DNA from: a virus
Lineage: Duplodnaviria > Caudoviricetes
IMG/VR virus record: IMGVR_UViG_3300033069_001185
Span: 64,386 to 128,385 of that record
Direction: 5' to 3' (one strand)
DNA: 64,000 bases
A model generated the notes under the pieces. The model was not told where the DNA came from. It searched no databases and saw only the letters and a program-made list of their open reading frames with translations. A program made the position numbers and the translations under genes. Shown piece after piece: positions 6,115-64,000 of the stretch. Position 1 is the stretch's first letter. Each line of letters opens with the position of its first letter.

Positions 6115-6531
6115 TTACCATAAATTTGCATAAAGTCGATACATATCGTCTAGATTGGCCGTAACATCACCAACATCACCTAATAGCAAGTCATTTGCAT
6201 CTGCCACAAGAAAATATTTGTTAGGACCAAACATAATGGCGCAGGGCGAGTAGGTGCTTAGGGCAAAATTCTTAGCCTCAAGAATGCTTAGATCTAGCAC
6301 ACAGTTTGAAAAACAGGCTCCTTCTACATCAGCACCGAAGAAGTCGATTCTATCCATTTTTAATGTACCAACCTTTTGAAACTTAGAAGAACTGAAGTCA
6401 ATTCCTCGCAAATCCATATTGCTAAAATTTGCTCGACAGCCGGTCCGCTTACTACCGTGTCTAAGCTGATATAGCCATGCGTGATGTTCTCGTACTGAGT
6501 TTATAACCTCGGTGTAAGAAGGTCTATACAT
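6115..6531 (-). CDS. Pentapeptide-repeat protein with C-terminal NxDD tag
   Basis: MYRPS start, H..WL...G.RANFSNMDL, C-terminal NLDDMYRLY. Confidence 0.75.
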   Translation of the reverse strand: MYRPSYTEVINSVREHHAWLYQLRHGSKRTGCRANFSNMDLRGIDFSSSKFQKVGTLKMDRIDFFGADVEGACFSNCVLDLSILEAKNFALSTYSPCAIMFGPNKYFLVADANDLLLGDVGDVTANLDDMYRLYANLW

Positions 6532-6973
6532 ATAGATGCTCGAATAGTCGATAGAAATCGTCTATATTCAGACTATGTGGTCCATGTGGCCCATTCGACG
6601 AAGACATGAGATGAGCCAGATCTTTAAATTGTAAGTCCGGACATGCTTTCAAATAAAACCCGGCCCCTATTTTAGTTTCGTATGCGATATAGATGATGTT
6701 CTCTTGGGAGCTACTACTCCGTAGCGCAGCGCTAATAGCTCCTTTGGCATGAAATAGCCAAGTAGCTGTGATTATGCATGTAGAGATATTCGCGCTTTCG
6801 AAATTGGTCCGACTATCATAAATCACGCTTGTAAAATCCCAGCCCTTAAGATCCATACCAGACACATCCATACAGCTAAGATCGGCCCGCGCTCCGGTTC
6901 GTCCAGCAGTATCTAACCATGATATATGGTCAGCACACATTATATCGATATCATACTGCGTAGGCCTATACAT
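6524..6973 (-). CDS. Pentapeptide-repeat protein with C-terminal NxDD tag
   Basis: MYRPT start, HISWL..GARADLSCMDV, C-terminal NIDDFYRLF. Confidence 0.75.
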   Translation of the reverse strand: MYRPTQYDIDIMCADHISWLDTAGRTGARADLSCMDVSGMDLKGWDFTSVIYDSRTNFESANISTCIITATWLFHAKGAISAALRSSSSQENIIYIAYETKIGAGFYLKACPDLQFKDLAHLMSSSNGPHGPHSLNIDDFYRLFEHLYV

Positions 6974-6976
6974 GGT

Positions 6977-7348
6977 TTACCGAAAGTCTTCAGGCAATGT
7001 TTGCCACTGTCCATTCCGATACATGGTAAACATTCCAACCAGACCTGTTTGATCTTCAATGATAAAGATCGCAGCGTCCCGTTCGTCATCAACGATCGAC
7101 GTAGCAAACAACGCGCTCTTAAGCTTTACTTTGGTTTGGGTTGCTCGGCTTACGTCTGAGCACATACCCTTGACACTATTCGTAATCGAAAGTCGTCGTG
7201 CGGCTTTCTTTGCTGCATCGTACTCGTAACCTCCATCTTGGACCTGATTCACAACGCCAGCGTCTGGCTTTGACTGTTTGACAGTAGGAACCGGAGTGTC
7301 AACCGATACTCCGGCAGAAAGAATGATAGCAATCAATAGGTTTTTCAT
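6977..7348 (-). CDS. Hypothetical secreted/membrane protein
   Basis: Signal-like N-terminus MKNLLIAIILSAG; coupled to the upstream def stop. Confidence 0.55.
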   Translation of the reverse strand: MKNLLIAIILSAGVSVDTPVPTVKQSKPDAGVVNQVQDGGYEYDAAKKAARRLSITNSVKGMCSDVSRATQTKVKLKSALFATSIVDDERDAAIFIIEDQTGLVGMFTMYRNGQWQTLPEDFR

Positions 7349-7818
7349 TTGTATTTCCTCATGTTACCACGAATAAGTTGTCTGCGAGCAGGTGTTAGAA
7401 AATCCACGAACAATACACCTTTCATATGGTCGTGTTCGTGTTGTAGCACATGTCCAAGCAATCCATCCACAGTTTCTGTGGTGTGTTTCATTTGAAGATC
7501 GTCGTACTCGATATCAATACTCTCGTATCGCCTGACAGTATCAAAAAAACCCGGCAAAGACAGACAGCCTTCCAGCATTGGGACTTTGGGTTGGGTAGAT
7601 TTTACCTTCAGGTTCAAATATACCTGAAGACCTTTGCCAACGTCGGCAACGATAACTTGTTTGAGAACGCCAATCTGAACCGCAGATAGCCCTACGCCAC
7701 CTGCGATCTTCATGGATTCATGCATATCAGACACTAGCTGTTTGATATCGTCCGTTACTTCAGCCACAGGCTCGCTTATTTTCTTAAGAGTAGGGTGTGG
7801 CCAAAGCAAGATTTTCAC
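7345..7818 (-). CDS. def: Peptide deformylase
   Basis: All three PDF motifs: GVGLSAVQIG, EGCLS, QHEHDH. Confidence 0.95.
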   Translation of the reverse strand: MKILLWPHPTLKKISEPVAEVTDDIKQLVSDMHESMKIAGGVGLSAVQIGVLKQVIVADVGKGLQVYLNLKVKSTQPKVPMLEGCLSLPGFFDTVRRYESIDIEYDDLQMKHTTETVDGLLGHVLQHEHDHMKGVLFVDFLTPARRQLIRGNMRKYK

Positions 7819-7827
7819 AGTAATCCT

Positions 7828-8154
7828 TTAATTGAGTAGATCGTCGTCTTTGCGCTTATCCCCAACACCGCCCAGCAAGTCTTTGATTTCTTGCTCAAGA
7901 TTGGACATCTGCGCTTTCATTGAGGTCGAATTCAAAAGCCCAAGCGCCTTCTGAAGCTCTTCCTCTTGCTTGAGTTCTTCTGGAGTAAGCTGACCGAACT
8001 CAGCGAACATCGAATTACAGCGGGTACATGCATGTACTTCTACAGTACCGTTTCCTTCAGACTTTGCCTGAATAAATCTGGGGAGGGTCTGTCCAGCCTT
8101 CCATTTTTGGTGGCCAACAACAGCGCATTTGATTTTATTGAGTAGGTTTTTCAT
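7828..8154 (-). CDS. Hypothetical protein (C..GH..CxxC)
   Basis: ORF in operon context; ATG overlaps the upstream stop. Confidence 0.55.
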   Translation of the reverse strand: MKNLLNKIKCAVVGHQKWKAGQTLPRFIQAKSEGNGTVEVHACTRCNSMFAEFGQLTPEELKQEEELQKALGLLNSTSMKAQMSNLEQEIKDLLGGVGDKRKDDDLLN

Positions 8155-8372
8155 TGTTTTTCCCATTTGTCACAGACATTACATTCAGTTTCTTGGTTAT
8201 ACCAAACTTCACAGCCGTTTTCTCCATAAACCATACAAAGCAGTTGTTGGCAAGTATCTGTATGGGACTGTACACATTTGTAGTTAAATTCTCTGTATAT
8301 CTGACCACCGAAGATAAATAGCGCTCCGGCAACAAGGAAAACGAAACAGAATTCAAACCAATCAATCTTCAT
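8151..8372 (-). CDS. Small Cys-rich membrane protein
   Basis: N-terminal TM segment followed by 6 Cys. Confidence 0.55.
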   Translation of the reverse strand: MKIDWFEFCFVFLVAGALFIFGGQIYREFNYKCVQSHTDTCQQLLCMVYGENGCEVWYNQETECNVCDKWEKQ

Positions 8373-8831: not shown

Positions 8832-9817
8832 TTATGTTCAGTCCCGCTGTTGCGCATTTTATATTCTTCGCTCACTGCCTTCAGGACCACACGACCGACT
8901 TCCATATCGAATGTTTCCTTGGTTGGTCGCAAAATCACACCTTCCCGGATTGTATTGGCATCCAACGTAGACATGCCTGACCGGAGAGCTAGAACTTCTT
9001 CTGTGAAAGGGCCTCTGTAGAGTTCCGGAACGTTTTCCAGACCCACAGAATTCACCATCGCAACCCGATCGTCATAATCCAGAAACTTTCGGGCAACAGT
9101 GTCAAAAATATCAAAGACCTTGAACCTAAAACCCTCTTCCGGAGGAACTCCATACTTAAGGTCTTGAACCGCTCCATATGTTTCTCCAAAGAAGGCCATG
9201 TTAGGACAAGCCTTCAGCCTGTTCTCCAAATCATACTTCAGGGCGATTTTCCACCACAGGCTGTTACCGTCCTTCTTTTTGATGCACCCGTGACTACCAA
9301 CCCACAGACGATCATCCTTGTACAAGAAGCGACTATTGCACCCATGGATCTTTTCTGTGACTACAACGTCTTCTCCGGACTTCAATACCGGATACTTGAA
9401 ATAAGACTCAACGGAATATACTGGCATGTACTGAGGATCTGACTCATTGTCGGTCCTCATACTGAAATCTTCCGGCTCTACATACTTGGTTACTCCAAGA
9501 GATTCGGAAGCTTCTTGACCCTCTTGCATATCGATACTGGGCTTAATCAGAACGCCTTCTGAATAGATACCGCGAAGACGAACCGGCTTGATTCTGTATG
9601 TACCGCCTTTGCCCTTCTTATCCAAGAAGGAGAACTCCGGACGGGCTAGATCTACTACTGCGTCATAAGGAACATAAACGGCCAGATCCCCAACAGAGAA
9701 TTGCTCTGTTCTGAAAATGACGTTCTGGCCGAAAACCTGTGTTATTGATAGAGAATCAGCATTTGGGTGCTTGCCAAGCTTATCAATCTTAACGACCTGT
9801 ACGCTGAAATTGCTCAT
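8828..9817 (-). CDS. RNA ligase, DRB0094 (Rnl5)-like
   Basis: N-terminal HPNADSL OB-like domain; motif I TEKIHG, FGE, FDI, REGV, LK. Confidence 0.88.
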   Translation of the reverse strand: MSNFSVQVVKIDKLGKHPNADSLSITQVFGQNVIFRTEQFSVGDLAVYVPYDAVVDLARPEFSFLDKKGKGGTYRIKPVRLRGIYSEGVLIKPSIDMQEGQEASESLGVTKYVEPEDFSMRTDNESDPQYMPVYSVESYFKYPVLKSGEDVVVTEKIHGCNSRFLYKDDRLWVGSHGCIKKKDGNSLWWKIALKYDLENRLKACPNMAFFGETYGAVQDLKYGVPPEEGFRFKVFDIFDTVARKFLDYDDRVAMVNSVGLENVPELYRGPFTEEVLALRSGMSTLDANTIREGVILRPTKETFDMEVGRVVLKAVSEEYKMRNSGTEHK

Positions 9818-9820: not shown

Positions 9821-10130
9821 TTATCCCCAAAATAGTCTATAGCAATCATCCAGATTAATGATTGTGTTGTGACTATACACTTCTATCTGGTCAATTGTCA
9901 ATGACGGTCTATCTTTTTCTTTAGAATTAATATACACACCCTAGCGTTCCGCAAAACAAAACGCAACTTAGGTGTGAGCCAGTAAAATCACAATATCGAC
10001 AATCAGATCCCGAAAAGTCAATACCAAGAAGGTGGTATCCGGCGAAGTTTGCATGGGACAGATTCATTTTCGTAAAACTACCTCGGCCATAAAGAATTTT
10101 TCTGATTTCTTTTTGAGTAGGTCTCTACAT
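9821..10130 (-). pseudogene. Pseudogene of the MYRP[ST]/pentapeptide/NxDD family
   Basis: Reads M*RPTQKEI...MNLSHANFAG...IDFSGSDC, then after a 1-nt frameshift GVYINSK...INLDDCYRLFWG*; 310 nt. Confidence 0.75.
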
Positions 10131-10453
10131 TACAGTTTCATTTTCTGAAGTCTGCCTTCAGAGTTAGTGAAAAATACAGTCTTTACTCCGTTCTGCCTCA
10201 AATATTCTTCACACTTCGGACATGGCTTGGCATTGCCGAATGTACCATCTTTCCTGAACCGGATCGAATAGACTTTTGTTCCTTTGCGCATACTGGGCCA
10301 AAGACATTCCAAAGCTCTCACTTCTGCGTGTACTTTATTGAAGTTGGACTTAAAGGCGACAATAGCGCCGCCAGAAACCACAAAAGCCGCATGATGATGC
10401 TGCTTGTGGTTTGACTTTCGACAAGTTTTGATAGCAGATTCAAGATTAAACAT
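10130..10453 (-). CDS. Zn-dependent cytidine/dCMP-deaminase-like protein
   Basis: HAE...KPCPKC. Confidence 0.85.
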   Translation of the reverse strand: MFNLESAIKTCRKSNHKQHHHAAFVVSGGAIVAFKSNFNKVHAEVRALECLWPSMRKGTKVYSIRFRKDGTFGNAKPCPKCEEYLRQNGVKTVFFTNSEGRLQKMKL

Positions 10454-10459: not shown

Positions 10460-10489
10460 TTTATATCACATAATGATATGAAATGTCAA
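10460..10489 (-). promoter_or_regulatory. sigma70-like promoter TTGACA-N18-TATAAA (TG extended), 6 nt before ATG
   Basis: Minus strand gTTGACAtttcatatcattatgTGaTATAAAcctactATG. Confidence 0.7.
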
Positions 10490-10647
10490 CCTAATAGAAG
10501 GGATACGTCCAAGCCCAAATCGAGGCATTTTTGATAAATGTCTGAATTCACAATGAAGACAGTCACTACTCCCGGTTTACTATTTCCGATGGATGGGAGA
10601 GAAAACGCGTCTGGTTCTCTGTCGTTTATTGAAATAAAAACCGGCAA
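10486..10647 (-). CDS. Small hypothetical protein (53 aa, TTG start)
   Basis: AAGGA upstream; ends VFIVNSDIYQKCLDLGLDVSLLLG. Confidence 0.4.
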   Translation of the reverse strand: MPVFISINDREPDAFSLPSIGNSKPGVVTVFIVNSDIYQKCLDLGLDVSLLLG

Positions 10648-10948: not shown

Positions 10949-11589
10949 CGGAAACGCTCCGTTAAGATATCAAAAACAACCTTTTCAACTGTAGCACGAT
11001 CTGGTTCGTCTGGCAACAAAGACTTGTTTTTGATATCTGCCCATGACTCTTTGTAGTAGACAAATTCTTTCTCAACGTCAGACCACGGCGTCTGACCAGA
11101 ACGGATCTTCAATAAATCGGGGATATCCTTTTCTCTCCTTACGACAAACCCTCCGGTCGTTAAGACCTCGTTCCCGGTACGAAGGAGTCTGATTAGGTGC
11201 ATTGCGTCTTTTCTGTCAAAGCCGTTCTTGATAATTCTTTGGTAATTGCCAATAGCATAGCCTAGATATGTATGGGCGAGCTTCTTGCTTAGGAAAGCCC
11301 TCCTGTGAGTTCTCAGTTGGCTAGCGAACTCGTCTTCAAACAGGATGCAATCCCTAGGAGCAAATAATGTTTCCAACACGTTGGGATTGCCGGACAAGCA
11401 CATATTGATATACTTACGGAACTCCCAAAACATGACATCGCCATCGCCTGCAATTGACTCAGGCCCTTTGCTAAGGCCAAAGAAGTGTTGGTCCGATGGA
11501 AGATACCAGCCACGGATATCTAGATCTGAATCTTGAACATTAGTTCCATACATGTAACTACCTGCGATTACTTTGTAATTAGGATTCAT
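10945..11589 (-). CDS. Pol-beta-superfamily nucleotidyltransferase (T4 NrdC.11 / RlaP-like)
   Basis: GSYMYGT...SDLDIRG, GNPNVLE, MHLIRLL, LPDEPD. Confidence 0.8.
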   Translation of the reverse strand: MNPNYKVIAGSYMYGTNVQDSDLDIRGWYLPSDQHFFGLSKGPESIAGDGDVMFWEFRKYINMCLSGNPNVLETLFAPRDCILFEDEFASQLRTHRRAFLSKKLAHTYLGYAIGNYQRIIKNGFDRKDAMHLIRLLRTGNEVLTTGGFVVRREKDIPDLLKIRSGQTPWSDVEKEFVYYKESWADIKNKSLLPDEPDRATVEKVVFDILTERFR

Positions 11590-11977
11590 ACCATTCCATA
11601 AAGTCGTCTATGTTCATAAGAGTATCGCTTGAATGGTCCTGCCATTCCTTGTCGATGCGGTCTGTCGTATGTTCACCAATTCCAAACCACCATACTACAC
11701 TGAAACTTTTCGGTTTCAGCCAGTTGAATTTAACGAATCTTGCCTCAAGTAGCTGTTTCTTTGACAAGTCGGTGTCCCGAAAAACACAGCTATTGAATAC
11801 AGTGCCAGTAAGCTTTGTGTTTGTAAAGTTGCTTTTTCTTAGCAACCTATTCGAGAAAATCAATCCCGATAGATCCATATTGCTAAAATCAGCAGGTATG
11901 AAATTAGGATCAAACCAGCGGATTTCGTCTGTTTTGTCAAGATAACAATCCAGTTCTTCTTGGGTTAACTTTTTCAA
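11579..11977 (-). CDS. Pentapeptide-repeat protein with C-terminal NxDD tag
   Basis: ADFSNMDLSGLIFS...NFTNTKLTG; C-terminal NIDDFMEWY; TTG start overlapping the upstream stop. Confidence 0.7.
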   Translation of the reverse strand: MKKLTQEELDCYLDKTDEIRWFDPNFIPADFSNMDLSGLIFSNRLLRKSNFTNTKLTGTVFNSCVFRDTDLSKKQLLEARFVKFNWLKPKSFSVVWWFGIGEHTTDRIDKEWQDHSSDTLMNIDDFMEWYES

Positions 11978-12375
11978 AATTCCCCCCAAAACTGCAACCA
12001 ATTATCAACATTTAACTGAGGATTAAAGAGCCTATTGCATAATAGTAATAGACCGTCCATGTCTTGGGAGTCCGGAGCGTCGGTAGTAAGTTCAATATAT
12101 CTACCGCCTGCTGTTTTGTATATCCTACAACGACCAAAATAGGCGCTCAGTAGTTGTTCTGTAGTAAAGTAACAGCCAGAAATGTCACTATAAAAAAACG
12201 TAGCACCCGTCAGCTTGCAATTGGTAAAATTGCTATATGAGAAATCAAAATTGCTAAAGTCGGTCCAAGACAGATCCATATCGCTAAAATCAGCCCGTTG
12301 GCCCTTAGAAGAGTCCGCTAGCCATTTCACATGCTCAGTGTTAATTTCTAGAAGAGTGGGTCTAGTCAATATCAT
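11974..12375 (-). CDS. Pentapeptide-repeat protein with C-terminal NxD[N] tag
   Basis: RPT...EHVKWL...GQRADFSDMDL; C-terminal NVDNWLQFW. Confidence 0.72.
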   Translation of the reverse strand: MILTRPTLLEINTEHVKWLADSSKGQRADFSDMDLSWTDFSNFDFSYSNFTNCKLTGATFFYSDISGCYFTTEQLLSAYFGRCRIYKTAGGRYIELTTDAPDSQDMDGLLLLCNRLFNPQLNVDNWLQFWGEF

Positions 12376-12376
12376 A

Positions 12377-13597
12377 TCAATACCAACAAACACTCAAGTT
12401 CTGTTTTGATCTCGTAAGTGCCGTATACAGCCAGCGACGGCCCGTCATACTGAAAGGCTTCACTGTTTCCTCCAAGACCACCAATACGTCATTTGCCTCT
12501 GAACCCTGAGACTTATGACAACTCAGTACATAGCCGTAATTTGCACTTACATATACACAGGATTCCGGCAGAACTCCAGAGCTTTTCTTTCTTTTGAGGA
12601 GTTTCTTGCACCCATTGCTAGCTGCCGACGGGCTGATCTTCATTTCGCCTTGGAGTTCTTGTTGGGAGATCAGACAGTGTTTACCCCCAACAAGCTCTAC
12701 ATACCAGTAATCAACGATATCGCTCTGTCCTGTGAACCGATCTGTTACCTTTACGGTTTCAATTCTTTCGACGACCCGTTTGATTACATAGACTTCGCCA
12801 TTCAGTACCTCATTGATATAGTTATTCTTGATAATCAACAAAGGCTCGGTGTCTTCTGGACGACTCATTCGACCGAGCGTTTTTCTGATTGCTTGGTTCA
12901 GTCTGTGTCTCGTTTCGTTGGTGTGGCAAATCACCATACCTTCTTTGGACCATATATCAATACTTTTATCAATAAGCTCGGTCTTATCAACAGAAGGCAC
13001 GTCGGAAAGTTGTAGGGCGAATGAATTAGAAGTCCTGACTGCCGTAGCCACCTTGATTATGATACTTTCTTCTGCTTGCCTAAGAACTTCAGACAGGTTC
13101 ACCCTATAGTCGGCATCCATAAGGAAAACACTGAAGCCTGCGTTTTCGGTATCGACCGGGGGTAATTGGAATTCGTCACCAATCAATATCAGGTTTTTGC
13201 CCACATTGCTACAAGTTTCTAGAAGATCTTTGTATAGATCGAAAGTAACCATTGAGGCTTCGTCGATAACGATTGCGTGGTACTTTGGCAGTTCTATATC
13301 AATAAGGTCCTTGGAGGTAAAGTCTAGATTGCCGGTGTTTTGGTCTTCTTTGACTGAATACATCCATTTATGGATCGTTGAGGCTCTGCAACCGGCTACT
13401 TCTGCGGCTCTTAGAGCTGCTTTTCCCGTCGGAGCCAGAACCAGAATACCGTCGGTCTCAGCCAATACTCTCAAAAGACTGGTCTTACCAGTCCCAGCCG
13501 GACCATTAACAATACAGACGCCTCCTCCGTTAGGGTGCGAAATTCCCAAGTCACGAAAGGCATCCAAAGCCTGTTGCTGTCCTTTTGTTAAGTTCAC
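12377..13597 (-). CDS. Dda/RecD-like SF1 DNA helicase
   Basis: GPAGTGKT, APTGKAA, IDEASM, GD.FQLPPV, HKSQGSE, YTALTR. Confidence 0.92.
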   Translation of the reverse strand: MNLTKGQQQALDAFRDLGISHPNGGGVCIVNGPAGTGKTSLLRVLAETDGILVLAPTGKAALRAAEVAGCRASTIHKWMYSVKEDQNTGNLDFTSKDLIDIELPKYHAIVIDEASMVTFDLYKDLLETCSNVGKNLILIGDEFQLPPVDTENAGFSVFLMDADYRVNLSEVLRQAEESIIIKVATAVRTSNSFALQLSDVPSVDKTELIDKSIDIWSKEGMVICHTNETRHRLNQAIRKTLGRMSRPEDTEPLLIIKNNYINEVLNGEVYVIKRVVERIETVKVTDRFTGQSDIVDYWYVELVGGKHCLISQQELQGEMKISPSAASNGCKKLLKRKKSSGVLPESCVYVSANYGYVLSCHKSQGSEANDVLVVLEETVKPFSMTGRRWLYTALTRSKQNLSVCWY

Positions 13598-18050: not shown

Positions 18051-18079
18051 CTTATATCAAGGCTCTTCACTGTTTACAA
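18051..18079 (-). promoter_or_regulatory. sigma70-like promoter TTGTAA-N17-TATAAG (TG extended), 6 nt before ATG
   Basis: cTTGTAAacagtgaagagcctTGaTATAAGtaaggaATG. Confidence 0.55.
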
Positions 18080-18314
18080 GATCATAAACATAACAATAAT
18101 CGTCTAGATTCATTTCTACGTTTTCTAAATTTTTCTGAATATTTGGCTTCGAACCAATTTTTTTGTCAAGGGATTTACGTTCAATATCTATCTTGTCACA
18201 CTGAATCGAAATATCCAGATATCCATATATCCGGGCAATCCTACTTGTTCCTGCGCTTACTCTGTCAGAACCAAGAACAGCAAGCAAAAGAGAGGGGCTG
18301 GTCAAGTTATTCAT
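18057..18314 (-). CDS. Small protein with C-terminal NxDD tag (no pentapeptides)
   Basis: C-terminal MNLDDYCYVYDL. Confidence 0.6.
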   Translation of the reverse strand: MNNLTSPSLLLAVLGSDRVSAGTSRIARIYGYLDISIQCDKIDIERKSLDKKIGSKPNIQKNLENVEMNLDDYCYVYDLVNSEEP

Positions 18315-18537
18315 CGGTATCTAGTAGCTCGTAAAACCTATAGTAGTCGTCTAAGTTGACTGAAAGCTTAGAAAAGGAGCTTAGCCTAAGGTTGTCAAAT
18401 CCGTCGAGATCTAAACAAGCATTACTGACAAAAATAGAAGCGCCGTCGGTTGCTGAGCCTGCAAACGTATAGCCGTGACTGAGGTCATACTTGCTGAGCT
18501 TTTCTGGCAAAGCCAGATATTTGTTCTTTTTCTTCAT
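18307..18537 (-). CDS. Small protein with C-terminal NxDD tag (no pentapeptides)
   Basis: C-terminal VNLDDYYRFYELL. Confidence 0.6.
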   Translation of the reverse strand: MKKKNKYLALPEKLSKYDLSHGYTFAGSATDGASIFVSNACLDLDGFDNLRLSSFSKLSVNLDDYYRFYELLDTDE

Positions 18538-19553
18538 ATGGGCTTCGCCATCGGGTCGTTTTTGCCATGAGGGGTGCCCTCTCGGTGTCCGTTGGAGGTC
18601 ACTTCGGCAAAAATTGCGTTCCGTCGTAGTTCTTCTAGGGTTCTTGCGCCACTATATGATAGTCCAGAACGAATACCACCTTTCAGTTCGACCAAAACAC
18701 CACCTACAGGCCCTTTTCTGCTAGGTTGATAGGTGACTCCCTCTGGAGTGCCATTTCCAACAGACCCACGGAATTCTTTCTGAGCTTCCGCAGAGGCCAT
18801 TCCTCTGAAGTCCGATCTTGGACATTCATCTGTACCGCCTAGCATTCCACCTAGCATAACAGCGTCAGCACCGGCAGCAAGGGCTTTAACAATATCTCCA
18901 CTACTGCGAATGCCTCCGTCGGCAATCGTGTGAATACCAGAGTCACGAGCGGCACGAGCGCAGTTCTCGATTGCAGTGATCTGCGGAACTCCATGGCCAG
19001 TGACGACTCTGGTCGTACATGCAGATCCCGGACCGACCCCGACCTTGACTACATCCGCTCCTCCTTGATAAAGGATATTTACTCCTTCGGATGTCGCAAC
19101 ATTACCCGCAATAACGGTTTTGAAGCCAATTTTCTTGAGTTCTGAACACATCATGCTTGCACGATTGCTTGCTGCATGGGCAATATCAAGGCAAACCGTC
19201 TCGACTCCCGTATCAAAATACGCCTTTGCCGCTTCCAAGTCCAGCGCCTGAATGCCAACGCTGGGGATAACGGTACTTGTCATTCCAAGTGACTGAAGCT
19301 TCTTGATCCAGTGCAAAACAGTCTTTGTGTCTGCATATCTGTGCAAAATACCAGCACCGCCAGCAAGATCCATTGCTGCGGCCATGGAGACTTCTGTAAT
19401 ACAATCCATATTCGCACTAAAGATAGGAATATCTAATTCCAGATGCCCGACTTTTGTCTTTATATCCACCTCAGATCTGCTCTTAATGTCAGAAATCTGA
19501 GGGATAAGAATAACGTCATCAAACGTGAACATCTTTTGTTTCAAAAAAATCAA
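18534..19553 (-). CDS. guaB: IMP dehydrogenase / GMP reductase family, no CBS domains
   Basis: [44 protein letters not shown]. Confidence 0.88.
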
Positions 19554-19565
19554 AGGGCGGTTCTC

Positions 19566-20375
19566 CTAATAGTTACAGGCAATAATTTCCGATACCTTGC
19601 CACGTCCAGAACCCTTGGAGTTGAGAACTCTTGAGGCTTTTACTTCATGGCAATTCAAATGTTTGTATAGCTCGCGAGTGAAGTCGCACCAAGAATTACT
19701 TATCATGACCTTAATATCATTCCTAGTAAGAATGTCAACGTGTTTCACTAGTTCGATTTGGTCTTGCAGGGAAAACCCATCTGCGCTATAGTTAGCAAAA
19801 TTCGAAGTAGAACTTATTGGGGCATATGGAGGGTCCAGATAGACAAAAGAATTTGGTTGGATCTCCGATACCATATCTTTAAAAGAGCTTTGAGCTATCG
19901 TTACACCTTGCAGGGCTATGCTGGCTTCAAGTAGCTCTTCTTTGTTTAGCTTGGGTTTACCAGTACCGATCGGACTGTTGAAGTAACCCTTTGAATTTAC
20001 TCGATAGAGTCCGTTAAAACAGGCTTTGTTTAGATACAAAAGACGTGAGGCTACGTCTAGCTCGCTGGCTGTAGACCAATTCAGATCTCGATCAAGGGCA
20101 CGAATAGCATAGTATTCCGATTTGGAGTGCCGTTCTTCCAGAAACTTTACCCTTAATGCCAGTTCTTCTGGATTATCTCTGACCTGTCGATAAGTAACAA
20201 TAAGCTCTTTGTTTATATCAAAAAGATGGGAGTTCTTAGGCTGGAGATCGAAGAAAACCGCTCCGCCACCCACAAAAGGTTCGTAATAATGCTCGAACCC
20301 CACAGGCATGAGGCGTTTAATTTCACCTAGAAGTTGCCGCTTGCCACCAACCCACTTTAAAAATGCCTTAGCCAT
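19566..20375 (-). CDS. dam: Dam-family DNA adenine methyltransferase
   Basis: KWVGGKRQL, EPFVGGG, FNGLYRVN, YLDPPY. Confidence 0.92.
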   Translation of the reverse strand: MAKAFLKWVGGKRQLLGEIKRLMPVGFEHYYEPFVGGGAVFFDLQPKNSHLFDINKELIVTYRQVRDNPEELALRVKFLEERHSKSEYYAIRALDRDLNWSTASELDVASRLLYLNKACFNGLYRVNSKGYFNSPIGTGKPKLNKEELLEASIALQGVTIAQSSFKDMVSEIQPNSFVYLDPPYAPISSTSNFANYSADGFSLQDQIELVKHVDILTRNDIKVMISNSWCDFTRELYKHLNCHEVKASRVLNSKGSGRGKVSEIIACNY

Positions 20376-24556: not shown

Positions 24557-25549
24557 TTACCAGTCCTTTTTAATGTAAAGAAAAATCTTATTGTTACTGA
24601 ACCTTTCACAGGCTTTGAAAAGTTTGTGTACTTCCTCAAAAGTCATAGCCCCAAGGTCGCCCTCTTTAACTCTCATATCAAAGATTTCTAGATCTCTGAA
24701 TTGCTCAACCAGCTTGGCCACTTCTCTGGTTGCATCTGCGTCCAAAGCAATATAGACCTTGCGTACTCCTGAGTTTTTGATAATATCAATCTGAGTCCTA
24801 GAAACGGCCTTACCCATTGTCGCTACGTTGCCGCCGCACAAGTCGGCCTTTATACCATCAATAGGACCTTCTGTGAGCACACAGTGATCGCTTCCGCTTA
24901 GGTTGTTCCTGAACATAAGCGCTTGGTCTTTTTTGAACCCCAAACTGGTCAGTGCCTTGGGAATGGTTACCAGTTTTTGTGTTTCTTCGTCAACGTAAGA
25001 CTCCCCACCGATGTAACGGCCCTGCCAACCTAACAGTCTTTTTTGATCGTAGACCGGGAAGATAACTCTTCGGGTACTGGGAGAGTATCTGAGATCGTAC
25101 TTCTGGGCTATATCAAAAGGAACCCCACGGCCAAGTAAGTAGTCAACTGCCGGTTTGCTATACTCACTATTCAATGATATAATGTCAGCAGTGAAGCTGA
25201 CCTCGGGAAGAATGACCTCGGTAGAGAGTACGATTTCGTCGTCTAGAAAGTCCTTGTCTGTCAGATGAAGATCAATGAAAACTCCCGAAACCTCAGAAAC
25301 CTGTTCCCCATATAACCGAGAGCGTATTTCAGAAAATGAAAGATTGGTAAGTTCTGCCAGTGCGTATTCTGGCCTGCCTTGAAAGTTATCAATCTCTTTG
25401 CAATAGAAACAGACAAAGCGGCCATCGCCGCGTCTAATGTACAGCTTGTCCCTTTTCCTGCACTTCGGGCAGGTCATAATAAAAGAGCGGGTGCCAGTTT
25501 TGAATTTGACACCCGCTTCTTCCATTATTGCTACTACTTCTTTTTCCAT
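24557..25549 (-). CDS. DNA primase (Zn finger + TOPRIM)
   Basis: CPKC...CFYC, TEGPIDG, IALDADA. Confidence 0.88.
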   Translation of the reverse strand: MEKEVVAIMEEAGVKFKTGTRSFIMTCPKCRKRDKLYIRRGDGRFVCFYCKEIDNFQGRPEYALAELTNLSFSEIRSRLYGEQVSEVSGVFIDLHLTDKDFLDDEIVLSTEVILPEVSFTADIISLNSEYSKPAVDYLLGRGVPFDIAQKYDLRYSPSTRRVIFPVYDQKRLLGWQGRYIGGESYVDEETQKLVTIPKALTSLGFKKDQALMFRNNLSGSDHCVLTEGPIDGIKADLCGGNVATMGKAVSRTQIDIIKNSGVRKVYIALDADATREVAKLVEQFRDLEIFDMRVKEGDLGAMTFEEVHKLFKACERFSNNKIFLYIKKDW

Positions 25550-25550
25550 T

Positions 25551-26681
25551 TTACGCCGATTGTTCTTCTACCAAGGTTTCGTTCACTTCAACCGAATCAG
25601 GACGCTTCCGGTGGTTGGTTAGCTCTCGCTTACGAACATCTGCAAGCACTCTTTGGCAAAGATCTGGATCTTGCTTTAGAGCAGCCAGCAAAGCCTTCTG
25701 GCCAGTCCACTTGTTTCCCTCAAACGTATAGCTCATTGAGGTAGGCTTTTCAATCGATTTCCGACCCACACCCAGAATAAGAGCTTCTTCGTGAGTATTG
25801 ATAATACCGAAGTCGTAGTCCAGAGTGAACTCCCCAACACGGTTCTTCGGCCCTAGAGAAGAATTGACCATCTTGACTCTGACTTTATGCCCAGTACGTT
25901 CTGAGTTGTCCATGAAGTCCGTCATTTCTTCGTTTTCTAGCTTGTTCCCCTCAAGATTGGTTCGACCTTCTTTTGAGAGGTTGGGTTCAACCATCATGAA
26001 GTATTCGCAGAAGTGCTGAACACCGAAAGCAACCGCTGCTTTGGTTTTTTCGCCTCGCATCTGAGCCGCCATGTCCATCTGGGCACGCAACTGAGCCGTA
26101 ATAATAAGGCTGATCTTGTATTTTCGAATGACAGGAAGAATGCGTTTCAGGCCTTTTTGGTAAGTCATTGCTTCGTCACCGATTTGTTGGACTAGCACAG
26201 AGTCAGCGTTTAGGTTTCGAATGCCCTGAATACCAGACAGTGAGTCAATGATAATGAGCTTGATCGGAGCCCCTTCTTCGCATAGGGCAGCTACATCCTT
26301 TTCAATGTAGTCAAACACCTTATCTGGCTCGTTGGTCTGTTCGATTTTGTACCGGTCTATATCAATACCGAAGTTCTGTGCTGCCTCGTCCAAGTCGTTC
26401 ATCTGGAAATGGTCTCGGAACTCAGTATCGAACTTGATAGCAATAGCCTCGGGATCTGCTTGGTGTAACTTACCTACGAAACTGTTACAAATTACGGTCT
26501 TGCCTGCCTTGGGAGGGCCATACAGTAGTAGAGTAGCTCCTCTTGGCAAACCCCAACCCTTACCGAATGTAAAGTTGAGCGACGGGCTATGGGTTTCAAG
26601 GACTTCGGCATGTACATTGTATCGATCTTTGATAGCGTTTTCAGATTTAAGGAGTTTGTCCATCCATTTGTTTTTACTCAT
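25551..26681 (-). CDS. recA: RecA/UvsX recombinase
   Basis: GPPKAGKT, DTE, IIIDSL, QLR. Confidence 0.85.
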   Translation of the reverse strand: MSKNKWMDKLLKSENAIKDRYNVHAEVLETHSPSLNFTFGKGWGLPRGATLLLYGPPKAGKTVICNSFVGKLHQADPEAIAIKFDTEFRDHFQMNDLDEAAQNFGIDIDRYKIEQTNEPDKVFDYIEKDVAALCEEGAPIKLIIIDSLSGIQGIRNLNADSVLVQQIGDEAMTYQKGLKRILPVIRKYKISLIITAQLRAQMDMAAQMRGEKTKAAVAFGVQHFCEYFMMVEPNLSKEGRTNLEGNKLENEEMTDFMDNSERTGHKVRVKMVNSSLGPKNRVGEFTLDYDFGIINTHEEALILGVGRKSIEKPTSMSYTFEGNKWTGQKALLAALKQDPDLCQRVLADVRKRELTNHRKRPDSVEVNETLVEEQSA

Positions 26682-26696
26682 ATTTTGTGAATCCTC

Positions 26697-27233
26697 TTAG
26701 TATCTGGTTTTGCCAAAATAGCCTTGAGTGGGTGACGAATCTGGACCGGGAAGGCTCATTTTCGCATGGAAACTATCCCCAAGGATTTTCTTGACAGCGG
26801 TATATGACATTTCGATTGACTTCTTCTTGCCTTCTAGTAGGGTTTTGAATGAATGTAGTATCGTTTCGGTTTCTTGTGCAGATTGATAGTCGGGATCCAG
26901 ATCAATAATTGCCTGTCTGGTGGTCTCGTTGGTCTGTAAGCCTCTCTCTTTCAGGATTGAGGGTACTTTATCCAGTACGATAACCGCCTTGATTTCTCTG
27001 GATTTACGACAGGCTGTCTCGTATTCGTACTCAACAGCCGACACCATCGAAACAAGCTCCGCATATGCTTGGTTGAAAACCGCCATCAACTCCGGAGCTT
27101 TACCCGGAGTGATGGACGCGATTTCTTCCGTTCTGTTTTCTGCAAAACGGATAGCCTTCATATCAAAAACCAGAGGTTCTGAATTAGGTAAACCTCTGGG
27201 GATTGACAGTTCGTCTTTACTTTGCATTGGCAA
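26697..27233 (-). CDS. Helical hypothetical protein, possible UvsY-like mediator
   Basis: All-helical; lies between SSB and RecA. Confidence 0.4.
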   Translation of the reverse strand: MPMQSKDELSIPRGLPNSEPLVFDMKAIRFAENRTEEIASITPGKAPELMAVFNQAYAELVSMVSAVEYEYETACRKSREIKAVIVLDKVPSILKERGLQTNETTRQAIIDLDPDYQSAQETETILHSFKTLLEGKKKSIEMSYTAVKKILGDSFHAKMSLPGPDSSPTQGYFGKTRY

Positions 27234-30199: not shown

Positions 30200-31154
30200 A
30201 TAGTTGCTTCTCCCATAACTGATGTTCTCCTTCCCAAAACACCGCGTAGGCATACCCCTCTCCGATCGCGATATCTTTCTTTGCTTTATCGTTTTTGATG
30301 TTTCTCTTTACCAACTCTACCATAGAACCAGTTTTGCTGGTAAGCTTATGCCAGAAATCGCCATGCATCTCTATCAGGCAGTTAAGCTTTGGACTAAAGA
30401 TATCGAATGATTTGTTTCTTAGCTTAAATTCAATAGTGGCGTCGGGATCTAGTGTTTGTATCAATTCAAACAATACTCTGTGAGGAAACGTCACTCTCCA
30501 TCTAGAAATCAGATTCGAGGCAGAGAACGCCGCTGCTCTTTTGCATTTATCGGAAGCCTTCTGTCCTATAGATATTCTACGGCCTCTCTTTTCTTTTAAA
30601 AGCCGGTCCAAAACGGTCATGTCGTAGTCTGCCGATCTCAAAAAAAGAGTCCTAAAATTGACTATATCATCTTCGTCTGAAAACAAGAACATAAAATTAG
30701 GAAACTGCCGATCTACTAGAGGCTTGAGGTCTTTAAAGCAAAGATCGTTGTACAAAAAATCTTCAGACATTAACGACAGAAACTCTGTAACTTGCTGTTT
30801 TGTATAAGGAAAGCTCTTGCTTAGCACAGAAGGATTGAGTGCCCCTCTTCTAGAGATGCCAAGCTTATCCGAGCCTTCCGGTGTCATTACTCCGATATTT
30901 CGTGGAGAGACAAACGACCAGTCTTCTATCGTTGTTTGTCTCCGCATAACAGAAATCCACCAGTCGGTGTCTCTTTTTGCGGAGACCCCCTCCGATCTTT
31001 TCCACGCCCATTCATGGTCGGTTTTTGTAGCAAACAACTCTTTCAGCTCTGCTTTTCTCTCTGGGCCGAGAGTGCATTTAGGGCTTTGGGTGTGTATTTT
31101 TGCTGTGTTGCTGCTTATTTCTTTCCCGCAGTCGCAAGTGATTCTTCTTGGCAT
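30096..31154 (-). CDS. Free-standing Vsr-like (PD-(D/E)XK) homing endonuclease between the intein halves
   Basis: FDIF...LIEMHGDFWH...ND..K...VFWE; overlaps both intein half-genes. Confidence 0.8.
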   Translation of the reverse strand: MPRRITCDCGKEISSNTAKIHTQSPKCTLGPERKAELKELFATKTDHEWAWKRSEGVSAKRDTDWWISVMRRQTTIEDWSFVSPRNIGVMTPEGSDKLGISRRGALNPSVLSKSFPYTKQQVTEFLSLMSEDFLYNDLCFKDLKPLVDRQFPNFMFLFSDEDDIVNFRTLFLRSADYDMTVLDRLLKEKRGRRISIGQKASDKCKRAAAFSASNLISRWRVTFPHRVLFELIQTLDPDATIEFKLRNKSFDIFSPKLNCLIEMHGDFWHKLTSKTGSMVELVKRNIKNDKAKKDIAIGEGYAYAVFWEGEHQLWEKQLYDLYGRRPEASIQDAQDKVNKVSRKKRSLRHYSS

Positions 31155-31444
31155 TGAATAAAGACCTCCGTGTCTTTATTCAAGATTAGGTCTTTTAGTG
31201 TAACCCACTCGCCTTGATATAAGAATTTATGATCTTCGGTAGCCTTGATCGTAGATCCGTCTTCCAGTTCAATCTCAAACACTTCTTTGATTCCGCTAGA
31301 AAACTTGGCAGAAGGAATGATATATTCTGTCTGGTTTGTCTCCATATCCAGACTCAAGACTGATATTTCTCCTTTCGACTTGACCAAATCCTCCATTCTC
31401 ATAGGACCGACGTTTGTCACTATCTTTTGGTCTCCGTCGATACA
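31115..31444 (-). mobile_element. Split intein, N half (about 109 aa)
   Basis: YGF|CIDGDQKI (block A), KEVFEIELEDGSTIKATEDHKF (block B), then stop. Confidence 0.92.
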
Positions 31445-51913: not shown

Positions 51914-52442
51914 GTACATCGCAGACGCCAAGCCACCGCTATCAGCCCTTACGGCAGCTAACCTTTTTGAGCTTTATGTTAACGGTTGCGACTGTGAAGA
52001 GATTGCCCGACTAAACCCAACGTTCGGTTTAGGTATTATTGTGCGGGCAAAGGTAGATTTCGACTGGGATCTGAGAAAAGAGAAATACCTAGATAGTCTG
52101 TTTGGCGGAATCAAAGAGAAAACCTCCAAGGTCCACCTAGAAGCTATTGACTTTGCTGCAAATACAATGACTGTATATCATAAAATATGGAACGATAAGT
52201 TCAAGAAATACATTCAGACAGGCAAAGAAGATGCACTTGAGGGCTGGAATGCTAGTTCCAAGTCATACGAGAAAGCCGTAGAAACATTGATGAAGCTAAC
52301 AGGACAGGACTCCACGAAGAAGCAAGAAATCCTCCACAAGCATTCTATTGAACAGAATGCTCCCGTGCTTTCCCGCCCTATGAGTTCTTCAGAGGCATCT
52401 GATATACTGAAGGCTCTAGAAGCCGATCGGAAAAAGGAATAA
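51846..52442 (+). CDS. Helical protein, candidate terminase small subunit
   Basis: HTH-like LYVNG..CEEIARLN; lies upstream of terL. Confidence 0.4.
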   Translation: MSNLVKIENVKNLSPNEKNAYDKYIADAKPPLSALTAANLFELYVNGCDCEEIARLNPTFGLGIIVRAKVDFDWDLRKEKYLDSLFGGIKEKTSKVHLEAIDFAANTMTVYHKIWNDKFKKYIQTGKEDALEGWNASSKSYEKAVETLMKLTGQDSTKKQEILHKHSIEQNAPVLSRPMSSSEASDILKALEADRKKE

Positions 52443-52446
52443 CAAA

Positions 52447-53079
52447 ATGAAGCAATCAACCAAAGTGGTTTTGGGTAAAGTTGGTATTTTTCTGTTTTTC
52501 AAGCTCCAGTTGTACTGGCTATGGTCTACGTTATATCGGGTTTTGTTCGAAAATCAATTTAGAACTCAAAAAATCCAAACATACGAGAATCTGAGCGACC
52601 TGCAAAAGAGACTATCAAAACTCAAATGGACCAATGACTCTTGGTTGCAGATGTTCGATGCTGTTTCTTATCCCGGAAAGATAGAACAGATCTTGTCAGG
52701 AGACATTGCACAACCAAAGCACGGTACTGACTGCGACGAGTTTGCGGTATATCTAACAGCCGCTATTGAAAGGTCGCTGACTGAGCCGTTGTGCAGATTG
52801 CAAGAAAATTCTCCCGGATTAGAGAAAGCAGAAGTCATGAGCGTTATGTGGGTCGGGAAAGACGGGCTATATTCTGGCCATAATGTATGTCTACTTACCT
52901 ACAGCACTCCAAATGGCAATACCTATTCCTACATGGATTACTTTCTCCCCAGCGCCCCTCAGTTCTCTGTAGAGGCAGTGGCCGATCAGGTTATGCGAAT
53001 GTATGCGGCTGATGCCGATTGTATTGGCTGGGCCGTCCATAATGAAAATGTATGGACCAGAAGCATTACTATTAGCTAA
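52447..53079 (+). CDS. Transglutaminase-like cysteine protease
   Basis: DCDEFA...GHNVC...YMD triad pattern. Confidence 0.6.
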   Translation: MKQSTKVVLGKVGIFLFFKLQLYWLWSTLYRVLFENQFRTQKIQTYENLSDLQKRLSKLKWTNDSWLQMFDAVSYPGKIEQILSGDIAQPKHGTDCDEFAVYLTAAIERSLTEPLCRLQENSPGLEKAEVMSVMWVGKDGLYSGHNVCLLTYSTPNGNTYSYMDYFLPSAPQFSVEAVADQVMRMYAADADCIGWAVHNENVWTRSITIS

Positions 53080-62574: not shown

Positions 62575-62596
62575 CTAACCTAGATTAGGGGAAATA

Positions 62597-62845
62597 TCAA
62601 AAAACAAATACGAGGACAACGTTAGGCTGCAAAAGTAGCTCGTTTAGCGAGTCGCTATTGCAAGCTATTGTCAATATTGACTTTTGCCGAAGGATTTTTC
62701 TTTGCCAGTCCGGATCTGTTAGCTGAAAATAGTTTTCTTGTCGCCCTGTGAAGTCAAATTTATATATGCCATCGAAAAGACCTTCGCATATATTTATGCT
62801 TATGTCCTTCCGTCGCCAGCTTTTGGAAAGCTTAATTCCTTGCAT
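62597..62845 (-). CDS. Hypothetical protein
   Basis: ORF in operon. Confidence 0.45.
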   Translation of the reverse strand: MQGIKLSKSWRRKDISINICEGLFDGIYKFDFTGRQENYFQLTDPDWQRKILRQKSILTIACNSDSLNELLLQPNVVLVFVF

Positions 62846-63082
62846 TTCTGACTATCCTGCCAACTGTAGCAAAGCCTATTCCGGTTTTAGATGCTATCTC
62901 GCGATAGGTCAGGCCAAGCTCTTTTAGAGACAAAACGGACTGGATAGTGTCAGCGCTTGTTTTCGGTCTACCACGAACGCCCTTTGACAGACAAAACTTA
63001 CAAGTAGCTCTTTTACTGTAGAAGTCCTTTACTTCTAGGACCAGAAAGCACCCATACGACACTGTTTAGTTTGCAGGGTCAC
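62832..63082 (-). CDS. Zn-finger + HTH protein, possibly frameshifted near the start
   Basis: GTG at 63082 reads MTLQTKQCRM, other frame continues CFLVLEVKDFY...CKFC...LTYREIASKTG. Confidence 0.45.
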
Positions 63083-63267
63083 TTTGCAGCCGCAAGGACT
63101 TCTGAAAAGGTCCAGATACGCCCAGTTCCGTTGTCGTTGATTTGATACCCGCGTTCGCCGCAAGCATAAGGCATAGGCTTGGAGAAATCTGGCAAAACCG
63201 TCAAGCCAATCAAGAAGATGCCCCTTGCAGCAAGGATTTTCATGGTTTTGCGATTGAAGTCGTTCAT
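63079..63267 (-). CDS. Small hypothetical protein (MNDFNRK...)
   Basis: GGAG RBS and own promoter. Confidence 0.6.
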   Translation of the reverse strand: MNDFNRKTMKILAARGIFLIGLTVLPDFSKPMPYACGERGYQINDNGTGRIWTFSEVLAAAK

Positions 63268-63288
63268 TCTTATCTCCAAGTGCGGCTG

Positions 63289-63318
63289 TTTATAGCAAAC
63301 TTATTGATATGGTGTCAA
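63289..63318 (-). promoter_or_regulatory. sigma70-like promoter TTGACA-N18-TATAAA (TG extended)
   Basis: TTGACAccatatcaataagttTGcTATAAA. Confidence 0.7.
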
Positions 63319-63380
63319 TACCAACAAACGCCTAGATTTCTTTTAGCCAGTTTTACTACCTGAACTGTAAAATCACTCAT
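63315..63380 (-). pseudogene. 21-codon chimeric remnant: RNA-ligase N-terminus fused to helicase C-terminus
   Basis: MSDFTVQVVKL-AKRNLGVCWY* versus ligase MSNFSVQVVKI and helicase SKQNLSVCWY*. Confidence 0.65.
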
Positions 63381-64000
63381 CTCACCAACCTCAAATAATC
63401 ATCGAAATTAACTTCGATGTGGCTTTTCAAACCATCCAAACTGTCGATTGTAATGTTTGGTTGATCGTTCGCTGAGCTGGTGATTGCTATGCAATGACCT
63501 GATTTAGTTCGGTAAGCCCATGTTCGGTTGAACTTTGCGTTTTCAAGGTTTGCGTTTTCAAGGTTTGCACCAGTCAGTTTTGCATCATATAGGTTTGCAT
63601 TTTCAAGGTTTGCACCAGTCAGGTTTGCATAAGACAGGTTTGCACCAGTCAGTTTTGCACCATATAGGTTTGCATCAGTCAGGTTTGCATTTACAAGGTT
63701 TGCATCAGTCAGGCTTGTGCCAATCAGTTTTGCATCATATAGGTTTGCATTTTCAAGGTTTGCACCAGTCAGGTTTGCATCAGTCAGGCTTGTGCCAATC
63801 AGTTTTGCATTTACAAGGTTTGCATCAGTCAGGCTTGTGCCAATCAGTTTTGCATCATATAGGTTTGCATTTTCAAGGTTTGCACCAGTCAGGTTTGCAT
63901 CAGTCAGGCTTGTGCCAATCAGTTTTGCATTTACAAGGTTTGCATCAGTCAGGCTTGTGCCAATCAGTTTTGCATCATATAGGTTTGCATTTTCAAGGTT
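63377..64000 (-). CDS. Pentapeptide-repeat protein with C-terminal NxDD tag (5' end outside the window; absent from the ORF track)
   Basis: About 31 units NLENA/NLYDA/KLIGT/SLTDA/NLTGA, then ...HIEVNFDDYLRLVR*. Confidence 0.88.
   Translation of the reverse strand, partial: NLENANLYDAKLIGTSLTDANLVNAKLIGTSLTDANLTGANLENANLYDAKLIGTSLTDANLVNAKLIGTSLTDANLTGANLENANLYDAKLIGTSLTDANLVNANLTDANLYGAKLTGANLSYANLTGANLENANLYDAKLTGANLENANLENAKFNRTWAYRTKSGHCIAITSSANDQPNITIDSLDGLKSHIEVNFDDYLRLVR
63536..64000. repeat. 15-bp-unit tandem repeat with an exact 120-bp higher-order period from about 63684
   Basis: Sequence at 63721, 63841 and 63961 is identical; so is 63781 and 63901. Confidence 0.92.

Follow-up and report, generated by a model that had tools for sequence, protein, structure and literature searches.

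We delineated a family of small pentapeptide-repeat proteins (PRPs) that share a short C-terminal tag in a 64,000 nt stretch (the window) of a 128,385-bp genome of an uncultured phage. The tag is most likely the closing helix of one gene family, rather than a universal address label. On balance, we consider it probable that it forms the last strand and an N-capped amphipathic helix of a C-terminal module that is private to this phage lineage and closes the PRP family.

The sequence-only reading had reported eight minus-strand genes with an N-[LIVF]-D-D tail about 10–17 residues from the stop codon. All eight were confirmed at their positions, with the tail N-[LIVF]-D-[DN]-aromatic at 10–17 residues from the stop. 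They are listed here by their first coordinate, which also serves as the gene name below, together with a tag fragment given in genome coordinates.

6115–6531, minus strand: PRP family member of 138 aa; tag NLDDMYRLYANLW at 6118–6156; tail ANLDDMYRLYANLW; PF00805 E-value 8e-7
6524–6973, minus strand: PRP family member with degenerate repeats, 149 aa; tag NIDDFYRLFEHLYV at 6527–6568; tail LNIDDFYRLFEHLYV; family profile E-value 4e-44
9821–10135, minus strand: broken family member; tag piece INLDDCYRLFWG still legible at 9824–9856
11579–12001, minus strand: PRP family member of 140 aa; tag NIDDFMEWYES at 11582–11614; tail MNIDDFMEWYES
11974–12393, minus strand: PRP family member of 139 aa, the protein chosen for modelling; tag NVDNWLQFWGEF at 11977–12012; tail LNVDNWLQFWGEF
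18057–18314, minus strand: small protein without repeats, 85 aa; tag NLDDYCYVYDLVNSEEP at 18060–18110, followed by an acidic tail; tail MNLDDYCYVYDLVNSEEP
18307–18537, minus strand: small protein without repeats, 76 aa, modelled as hairpin-strand-helix; tag NLDDYYRFYELLDTDE at 18310–18357; tail VNLDDYYRFYELLDTDE
63377–64000, minus strand: long PRP family member of at least 207 aa with ~31 units; tag NFDDYLRLVR at 63380–63409; tail VNFDDYLRLVR; PF00805 E-value 6.5e-63
Genome 19557–19640: tag fragment of 28 aa

Genes 6524 and 6115 form a tandem pair with an 8-nt overlap, 6115 lying downstream; 11974 is the upstream gene of another pair; and 18307 overlaps 18057 by 8 nt and a GMP-reductase-like gene by 4 nt. 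The orthologs of 11579 begin at MKKLTQ and have 132–136 aa. The reading frame of 63377 leaves the contig end within its own repeats. Gene 9821 is broken by a stop at codon 2 together with a frameshift, and the sister strain L002, which is 99% identical, has both of these lesions; a sister phage has an intact ortholog of 126 aa (P0123). The family genes belong to the early/DNA-metabolism arm, and the head genes are encoded on the other strand. Three further genes proposed as distant members (10486, 62281, and 62597) found no profile support, and the sister strain has a 36-bp deletion that covers the VNSDIY stretch of 10486.

C-terminal enrichment against shuffled proteins had been named beforehand as a test of the tag. 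Using a greedy set of 157 genes covering the whole 128,385-bp genome, we found the pattern N[LIVFM]D[DN][FYWMC] 8 times within the last 20 residues versus 0.031 by residue shuffles, a clear enrichment, and not once outside the C-termini of the same 157 proteins, versus 0.4 expected. Genome-wide there are 14 tag copies, each of them on the minus strand, and the distance from tag to stop is always 10–18 residues, with the sole exception of the carrier at genome position 26534. In ~700 kb of unrelated metagenome DNA the motif occurred at a C-terminus once, and an HMM gave no match there. Synonymous codon variation within the tag, as noticed earlier, was also evident (AAT/AAC, GAC/GAT, CTA/TTA/CTG/ATA/ATC); because the tag codons differ between copies, the copies do not share one identical DNA patch. 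At about five fixed positions the motif is short, which would favor a chance or compositional coincidence or a recent gene conversion copying a short DNA patch. We regard this explanation as extremely improbable, contradicted as it is by the enrichment count, by the near absence of the motif from the control DNA, by the codon differences from copy to copy, and by the retention of the tag in orthologs at 70–99% identity.

By sequence, the repeat-bearing carriers are paralogs that belong to a single family. It comprises ~13 repeat-bearing copies, of which nine, including one broken gene, have a canonical tag and three a degenerate one, besides leftover fragments. The full-length alignment starts with M[YF]RPT..EI..H..WL..KG.RA.FS.MDL, continues with the variable repeats and then with F..A.F...IY.T..G...L..DAPD, and ends with the tag; the N-terminal hallmark RA.FS.MDL is conserved to a similar degree as the tag (mean BLOSUM 2.97 versus 2.87). 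With the tag masked, the bodies matched each other in nearly all pairs (15–146 bits), and leave-one-out searches recovered five of eight members at rank 1–4 of 2,943 segments. Most members have 120–155 aa, of which the repeats cover only ~40–70 residues; 63377 and a 166 aa protein at genome position 31141 are the only longer ones. Six of the eight genes had been credited with pentapeptide repeats. Pfam detected them in 6115, 11579, 11974, and 63377 (28.9, 36.1, 33.5, and 208 bits; cutoff 20.2) and, in line with that reading, not in 18057 and 18307, but it also found none in 6524, which the family profile nevertheless clearly recognizes as a member. The idea of a modular tag on a diversifying set of cargos stands as far as an enriched C-terminal motif that is conserved while the bodies change, whereas the word cargos is overstated because the repeat-bearing carriers are paralogs.

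Purifying selection preserves the tag in proteins whose bodies change. Down to 70% identity, orthologs keep the tag core NIDDF..WY without any substitution, whereas the pre-tag region varies. Between two 99%-identical strains, the family genes showed a pN/pS of 0.91 versus 0.07 for neighboring core genes (Fisher p 1e-5), with 1.32 in 11579, and none of the changes between these strains fell in a tag. Gene turnover is visible in pseudogene 9821, in the 28-aa tag fragment, and in a change of repeat number, the sister-phage version of 63377 (P0004) having only 121 aa compared with at least 207 aa. The region before the tag had been described as unrelated between members. It is polar and variable in length, and a weakly conserved hairpin is recognizable in part of the family. 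In 6524, whose sister-phage counterpart is P0126, a (Gly-Pro-His)n linker directly precedes the tag in a strain-dependent number of one to three copies, with a 9-nt insertion in L002. Such a segment is also compatible with a flexibly tethered peptide.

Four tag carriers lack repeats: 18057, 18307, and two genes outside the window, at genome positions 9042 and 26534. As reported earlier, 18057 and 18307 are unlike the repeat proteins outside the tag. With the tag masked, hhalign against the repeat proteins gave a probability of 0.1 for these two, without clear similarity, pairwise Smith-Waterman alignments of the repeat-less carriers with the family were non-significant, and a pre-tag HMM missed all four, which also lack the N-terminal RA.FS.MDL hallmark. 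A search for a longer, repeat-bearing form of 18307 found none. A weak gain of ~5 bits over shuffles was left for 18307 and 18057 with the tag masked (p ~0.02–0.03); together with a similar predicted topology, this excess hints at a common origin of the repeat-less carriers. The four proteins would most likely be stand-alone or solenoid-less copies of the closing module.

We modeled two proteins with AF2, both from shallow alignments. For 11974, the best model reached a pLDDT of 72.5 and was the only one of five above 53; it places the tag in a strand (126–127) and a helix (129–136), preceded by a hairpin (89–93/99–102) and a helix (112–121). The model is of moderate confidence and is predicted to adopt the right-handed quadrilateral beta-helix fold, aligning by VIA-align to MfpA with Z 8.8 and an rmsd of 1.7 over 64 residues, as well as to QnrB1 and synthetic solenoids. 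By the first and last aligned residues, model residues 27–136/138 correspond to MfpA residues 102–179 and 110–187, and the alignment reaches the C-terminal end of MfpA. For 18307, three models with a pLDDT of ~73–74 showed a compact 76-aa fold (pTM 0.62) with strands at 24–28, 34–37, and 57–60 and a helix at 62–74, the tag helix block being the most confident part (85); this model is not independent because its alignment included C-terminal modules of the repeat family. Its best match among 48,161 chains had Z 3.3, and BFVD gave no match; missing fold matches of this kind are weak evidence.

These models suggest a C-terminal module of ~50 residues, composed of a hairpin, a variable linker or short helix, a strand, and a helix, which would close a fast-diversifying family of small pentapeptide-repeat beta-solenoid proteins. 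The tag Asn would be the helix N-cap, the two Asp would lie in the first helical turn, with Asp+2 able to pair with the frequent Arg+6, and positions −1, +1, +4, +7, and +8 would form one hydrophobic, aromatic face. This face may pack on the hairpin and so cap the open end of the solenoid; it may double as a dimer contact, the part played by the C-terminal helices in MfpA and Qnr. Helix capping and a buried aromatic face could thus account for the conserved tag residues, the packing of the helix being inferred. The sequence-only reading was to be given up if the tag proved to be simply the terminal helix of a single folded domain common to the carriers and already in Pfam; our result comes close to this, with a domain that lies outside Pfam.

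The tag matched no described domain, and the sequence-only reading had not recognized one either. Pfam and PHROG searches gave no match on the tail, profile matches in the PDB end at the repeats with none covering the hairpin-strand-helix module, and the C-terminal profile found nothing below E 0.1 in the PDB. Among the 120 listed of 1,085 matches to the PRP family, the tag occurred only in sister-phage proteins. The C-terminal profile matched 13 of 1.84 billion representative proteins, nine from this lineage and four long repeat proteins; on the evidence of this search, the module is private to the phage lineage.

Pentapeptide-repeat solenoids are known DNA mimics, protecting or inhibiting topoisomerases; what they do in phages has, to our knowledge, hardly been explored. 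Those of the Qnr/MfpA type have ~8–10 coils and 180–220 aa, forming a rod of B-DNA size. The phage family shares with MfpA, Qnr, AlbG, and EfsQnr the right-handed quadrilateral beta-solenoid of A(D/N)LXX units (PF00805) and a helix at the extreme C-terminus, which is the dimer site in known members (PMC10886550), and its tag opens as one more repeat unit, [AVLIM]-N-[LIVF]-D-D. It differs in its mostly smaller size with only ~2–4 coils, in an insert of ~40 residues (hairpin plus linker) between solenoid and terminal helix, in sequence matches to solved PRPs that stop at the repeats, and in being multi-copy and fast-evolving. The best matches of the family profile outside the lineage, among those listed, were YjbI-like bacterial PRPs (e.g., PF19062-bearing, 286 aa), which share the N-terminal H..WL...G..A.L entry plus repeats and likewise add an unrelated C-terminal domain to a PRP solenoid; theirs, however, ends in ECSTGIHFF[LI]TR.EA without an N-x-D-D helix.

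Two other readings of the tag have to be weighed. Docking peptides of the encapsulin cargo-loading, clamp-tail, or SSB-tail type combine a short conserved C-terminal element and a variable polar linker with differing bodies. The phage tag is similarly short, C-terminal, and conserved behind a polar, length-variable segment, and could be a tethered helix bringing unrelated small proteins to one common partner, such as a host hub protein, a phage adaptor, a chaperonin or protease, or, in encapsulin style, the capsid interior. Its near-constant distance to the stop and its invariance next to bodies with pN/pS near 1 agree with this, and so does the tag being the only element that the four repeat-less carriers clearly share with the repeat proteins. 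We nevertheless consider it doubtful: most carriers are paralogs with other common hallmarks, the tag helix is the most confident part of a compact predicted fold, capping and a buried face account for all conserved positions, there is no candidate partner, and none of the other phage or bacterial proteins searched has the motif. Capsid loading is disfavored because of the early position and strand of the genes. A portable element serving as a phage-private effector address system, by which solenoid and non-solenoid effectors diversified under host pressure would reach one hub, is graded as unlikely.

Alternatively, the tag helices could purely join members tail to tail, with the translationally coupled tandem pairs 6524/6115, 11974/11579, and 18307/18057 as heterodimers and the repeat-less proteins as half-partners capping or regulating solenoid dimers. 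Known PRPs dimerize through C-terminal helices (PMC10886550), the 11974 model extends to the MfpA C-terminal end, the genes lie in overlapping tandem pairs, and tags are alike within pairs (YRL[FY]..L[YW]; W-rich; Y.Y[DE]L[LV] plus acidic tail). However, tandem duplication predicts this likeness equally well, in their bodies the two members of a pair are not clearly each other's closest relatives, and, in contrast to MfpA and Qnr, a stretch of ~40 residues lies between the last coil and the tag. We therefore judge dimerization as the sole function to be quite unlikely, and return to the closing helix as our preferred reading.

More than a dozen copies, shifting repeat numbers, near-neutral to positive change of the bodies, and pseudogenes are a typical arms-race pattern, and two invariant end-pieces unite all copies. 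The proteins probably act as early-expressed DNA-mimic or protein-binding decoys for host takeover or counter-defence, a putative role. If the tag is a fold-closing helix only, the module would be an ordinary lineage-specific domain. If the module is a dimerization or docking device, this would explain how the family can vary its surface and still preserve one constant assembly or targeting function, and the tag would be a handle for the search for its partner.

The C-terminal tag, N-[LIVF]-D-[DN] followed by an aromatic residue, is real and private to this phage lineage. Translations confirmed that the eight window genes named in the sequence-only reading (6115, 6524, 9821, 11579, 11974, 18057, 18307 and 63377, after their window start coordinates) all lie on the minus strand with the tails it had quoted. 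A regular expression run across the whole genome found extra copies outside the window (whole-contig coordinates, "genome"):

Genome 19674-20141, minus strand, tag carrier of 155 aa ending SLNIDDYFRLF
Genome 31141-31641, minus strand, tag carrier of 166 aa ending VNFEDYLRLVR
Genome 52213-52602, minus strand, tag carrier of 129 aa ending LNMDDYQELL
Genome 9039-9230, minus strand, tag carrier of 63 aa ending LNADDYQNLL
Genome 26534-26791, minus strand, tag carrier of 85 aa, tag 32 residues from the end
Genome 19557-19640, minus strand, 28-residue tag fragment

In a greedy gene set (157 genes), eight copies of the motif fall within the last 20 residues and shuffling predicts 0.031, which bears out C-terminal enrichment over shuffled proteins; elsewhere in these proteins it was not found (0.4 expected). 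About 700 kb of unrelated metagenome DNA held one C-terminal motif match and no profile match. The tag codons vary from copy to copy, as had been noted from the sequence alone and as copy comparison confirmed; the motif is thus preserved as protein sequence.

The pentapeptide-repeat carriers form one family. In a full-length alignment, members share the N-terminus M[YF]RPT..EI..H..WL..KG.RA.FS.MDL, followed in order by a solenoid of highly variable length, F..A.F...IY.T..G...L..DAPD, a polar linker and the tag. With tags removed, the bodies still match each other in nearly all pairs (15-146 bits). The RA.FS.MDL stretch, overlooked earlier, is conserved as strongly as the tag (mean BLOSUM62 2.97 vs 2.87). 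A body profile picked out 13 repeat ORFs genome-wide; in three, the tail is degenerate (INPDQFLDLV, on the plus strand; LNYESYLDY; GIDRKDILREL). Two family genes outside the window are:

Genome 52612-53019 (L005 16612-17019), upstream family gene of a tandem pair, without the hairpin module, tail GIDRKDILRELGV in place of the canonical tag
Genome 24631-25164 (L004 6631-7164), plus strand, sole plus-strand family member, with the full N-terminal hallmark, repeats and the degenerate tail INPDQFLDLVESGLFSP

The genes at genome 52612-53019 and 52213-52602 (L005 16213-16602) form a tandem family pair, and both begin MSNYNI. When profiles of the 45 residues ahead of the masked tag were built leaving out one member at a time, five of the eight members ranked 1-4 among 2,943 segments and three were missed, so conservation of this region is weak and limited to some family members. 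The earlier view that it is unrelated between members is contradicted for these five. The distant members suggested at 10486, 62281 and 62597 were rejected, as no profile matched them. In the sister strain, a 36-bp in-frame deletion (window 10506-10541) cuts the C-terminal part of the small ORF 10486-10647, and the lost stretch is the very tag proposed for 10486.

The window spans positions 64,386-128,385, the second half of one 128,385-bp contig from a large, uncultured tailed phage. Pfam and PHROGs identified RecA-like, SbcC-like, GroEL-like chaperonin, portal protein, nucleotidyltransferase-like and dCMP-deaminase-like genes and an intein-bearing ribonucleotide reductase, whose large subunit is split by a LAGLIDADG endonuclease intein (Pfam; window 36993-39611). 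Peptide-deformylase-, adenylosuccinate-synthase-, MoxR/vWA-, GMP-reductase- and Dam-like genes were read by eye from translations. No close relative emerged among deposited phages by megablast or tblastn, Staphylococcus phage pentapeptide-repeat proteins giving only weak repeat matches. The IMG/VR contig L002 matches at 98.95% identity across 19.8 kb, and viral-contig scans with 18307, the MoxR-like ATPase and an alignment of 11579 orthologs led to one contig only, 99% identical. More divergent sister contigs measure 154,917 bp (NCBI), 82,746 bp (Logan) and 17,403 bp (ENA). A metagenome scan with the GMP-reductase-like gene found no sister phage, only relatives at 35-50% identity, which served as the control DNA for the motif. 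In L002, a 10-bp deletion (window 18976-18985) would shift the frame of the GMP-reductase/IMPDH-like gene 18534-19553; it marks either a pseudogene in that strain or a misassembly. The long tandem pentapeptide array of 63377 (window 63377-64000) is cut by the contig end. Because an open frame, starting MHTFTIKIGDPNLENANL, continues across the joined contig ends, the genome appears to be circular or permuted, with the assembly broken or collapsed in these repeats.

Between the two 99%-identical strains, nearly all changes in neighbouring core genes are silent. An RNA-ligase-like gene has 14 differences between window and L002, all 14 silent, while the 16 nucleotide differences of 11579 change 12 amino acids (pN/pS 1.32). 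Pooled over the same comparison, pN/pS is 0.91 for family genes versus 0.07 for neighbours (Fisher p 1e-5), and no change falls inside any tag. N-I-D-D-F and W-Y persist in 11579 orthologs as distant as 70% identity, and within the tag only the two outward positions vary; the hairpin and linker of these orthologs are far more variable than the tag. Repeat number differs between strains (at least 207 aa in 63377, 121 aa in its sister-phage version P0004), and 6524 has one to three copies of a Gly-Pro-His linker ahead of the tag. Gene 9821 is a pseudogene in both the window strain and L002, with an intact ortholog, P0123, in a sister phage.

The tag position before the Asn (-1) is aliphatic in every copy and +1 is hydrophobic; +2 and +3 are D/E and D/N, +4 is mostly aromatic, +6 often Arg, and +7/+8 hydrophobic or aromatic. 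By general helix-capping rules, this pattern would fit an N-capped amphipathic helix after a strand. The Asn would serve as the cap and the acidic residues would lie in the first turn, with a possible i/i+4 Asp-Arg pair and one face buried. The first five residues also match the pentapeptide consensus A(D/N)LXX. A possible likeness of the tag to the QnrB1 C-terminus and to T4 clamp-binding tails was set aside.

AF2 modelling of 11974 from an 8-sequence family alignment predicted a solenoid, a hairpin (89-93/99-102) and a helix (112-121), with the tag forming a two-residue strand (126-127) and a helix (129-136); the best model reached pLDDT 72.5, the other four <53. For 18307, three models (pLDDT ~73-74, pTM 0.62) gave strands 24-28, 34-37 and 57-60 and a helix 62-74, the tag helix being the most confident block. 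Both predictions share a hairpin, ~20-24 residues, a strand and a helix, an agreement that is not independent since the 18307 alignment included family tails. By Foldseek and VIA-align, MfpA, QnrB1 and designed solenoids are structural matches of the 11974 model. Against MfpA (VIA-align Z 8.8), model residues 27 to 136-138 align with chain residues 102/110 to 179-187, up to the MfpA end. Such solenoids typically dimerise via C-terminal helices (PMC10886550).

The family profile matched 1,085 repeat proteins among 5.8 billion; among the best 120 of these, the tag occurs on sister-phage proteins only, and the common bacterial matches have other C-terminal domains. A C-terminal profile run on 1.84 billion representatives, without a word index, returned 13 proteins, nine of this lineage and four long repetitive ones. 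Profiles of the full-length family and of the C-terminal module matched nothing beyond the repeats among PDB sequences, and 18307 gave no PHROG, Pfam or Atlas lead, in keeping with the initial impression that the tag is no described domain. We found no description of a tag-bearing pentapeptide-repeat family in the literature.

The tag had been proposed to be a portable docking peptide, which we consider unlikely. It retains some probability because four small carriers without repeats (18057, 18307 and, outside the window, genome 9042 and 26534) share no other detectable link with the family. With the tag masked, 18307 and 18057 show no clear similarity to it (hhalign probability 0.1); the pre-tag profile does not match them, their pairwise Smith-Waterman scores are not significant after correction, and they lack the RA.FS.MDL-type hallmark. 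When the tag was kept and the pre-tag residues shuffled, the real score was slightly higher (~5 bits) and was reached by 7/300 and 9/300 shuffles. By eye, a pentapeptide register can be read in 18307 residues 40-64 (ACLDL-DGFDN-LRLSS-FSKLS-VNLDD); it was not found in other members. Fold searches with the 18307 model gave no neighbour (best Z 3.3), and ESM Atlas look-alikes, all PAS fragments, were discarded as uninformative given their low shared-feature counts. No relatives of 18307 were found outside its own 90% cluster, in the near or longer length class. At >=90% identity, 18307 occurs on seven contigs, one of them the more divergent 154,917-bp sister, which speaks for its being a maintained gene rather than debris. 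On balance, we lean towards reading the tag as the strand-helix that closes the private C-terminal module found in one pentapeptide-repeat family, where it would probably also provide a dimer contact.
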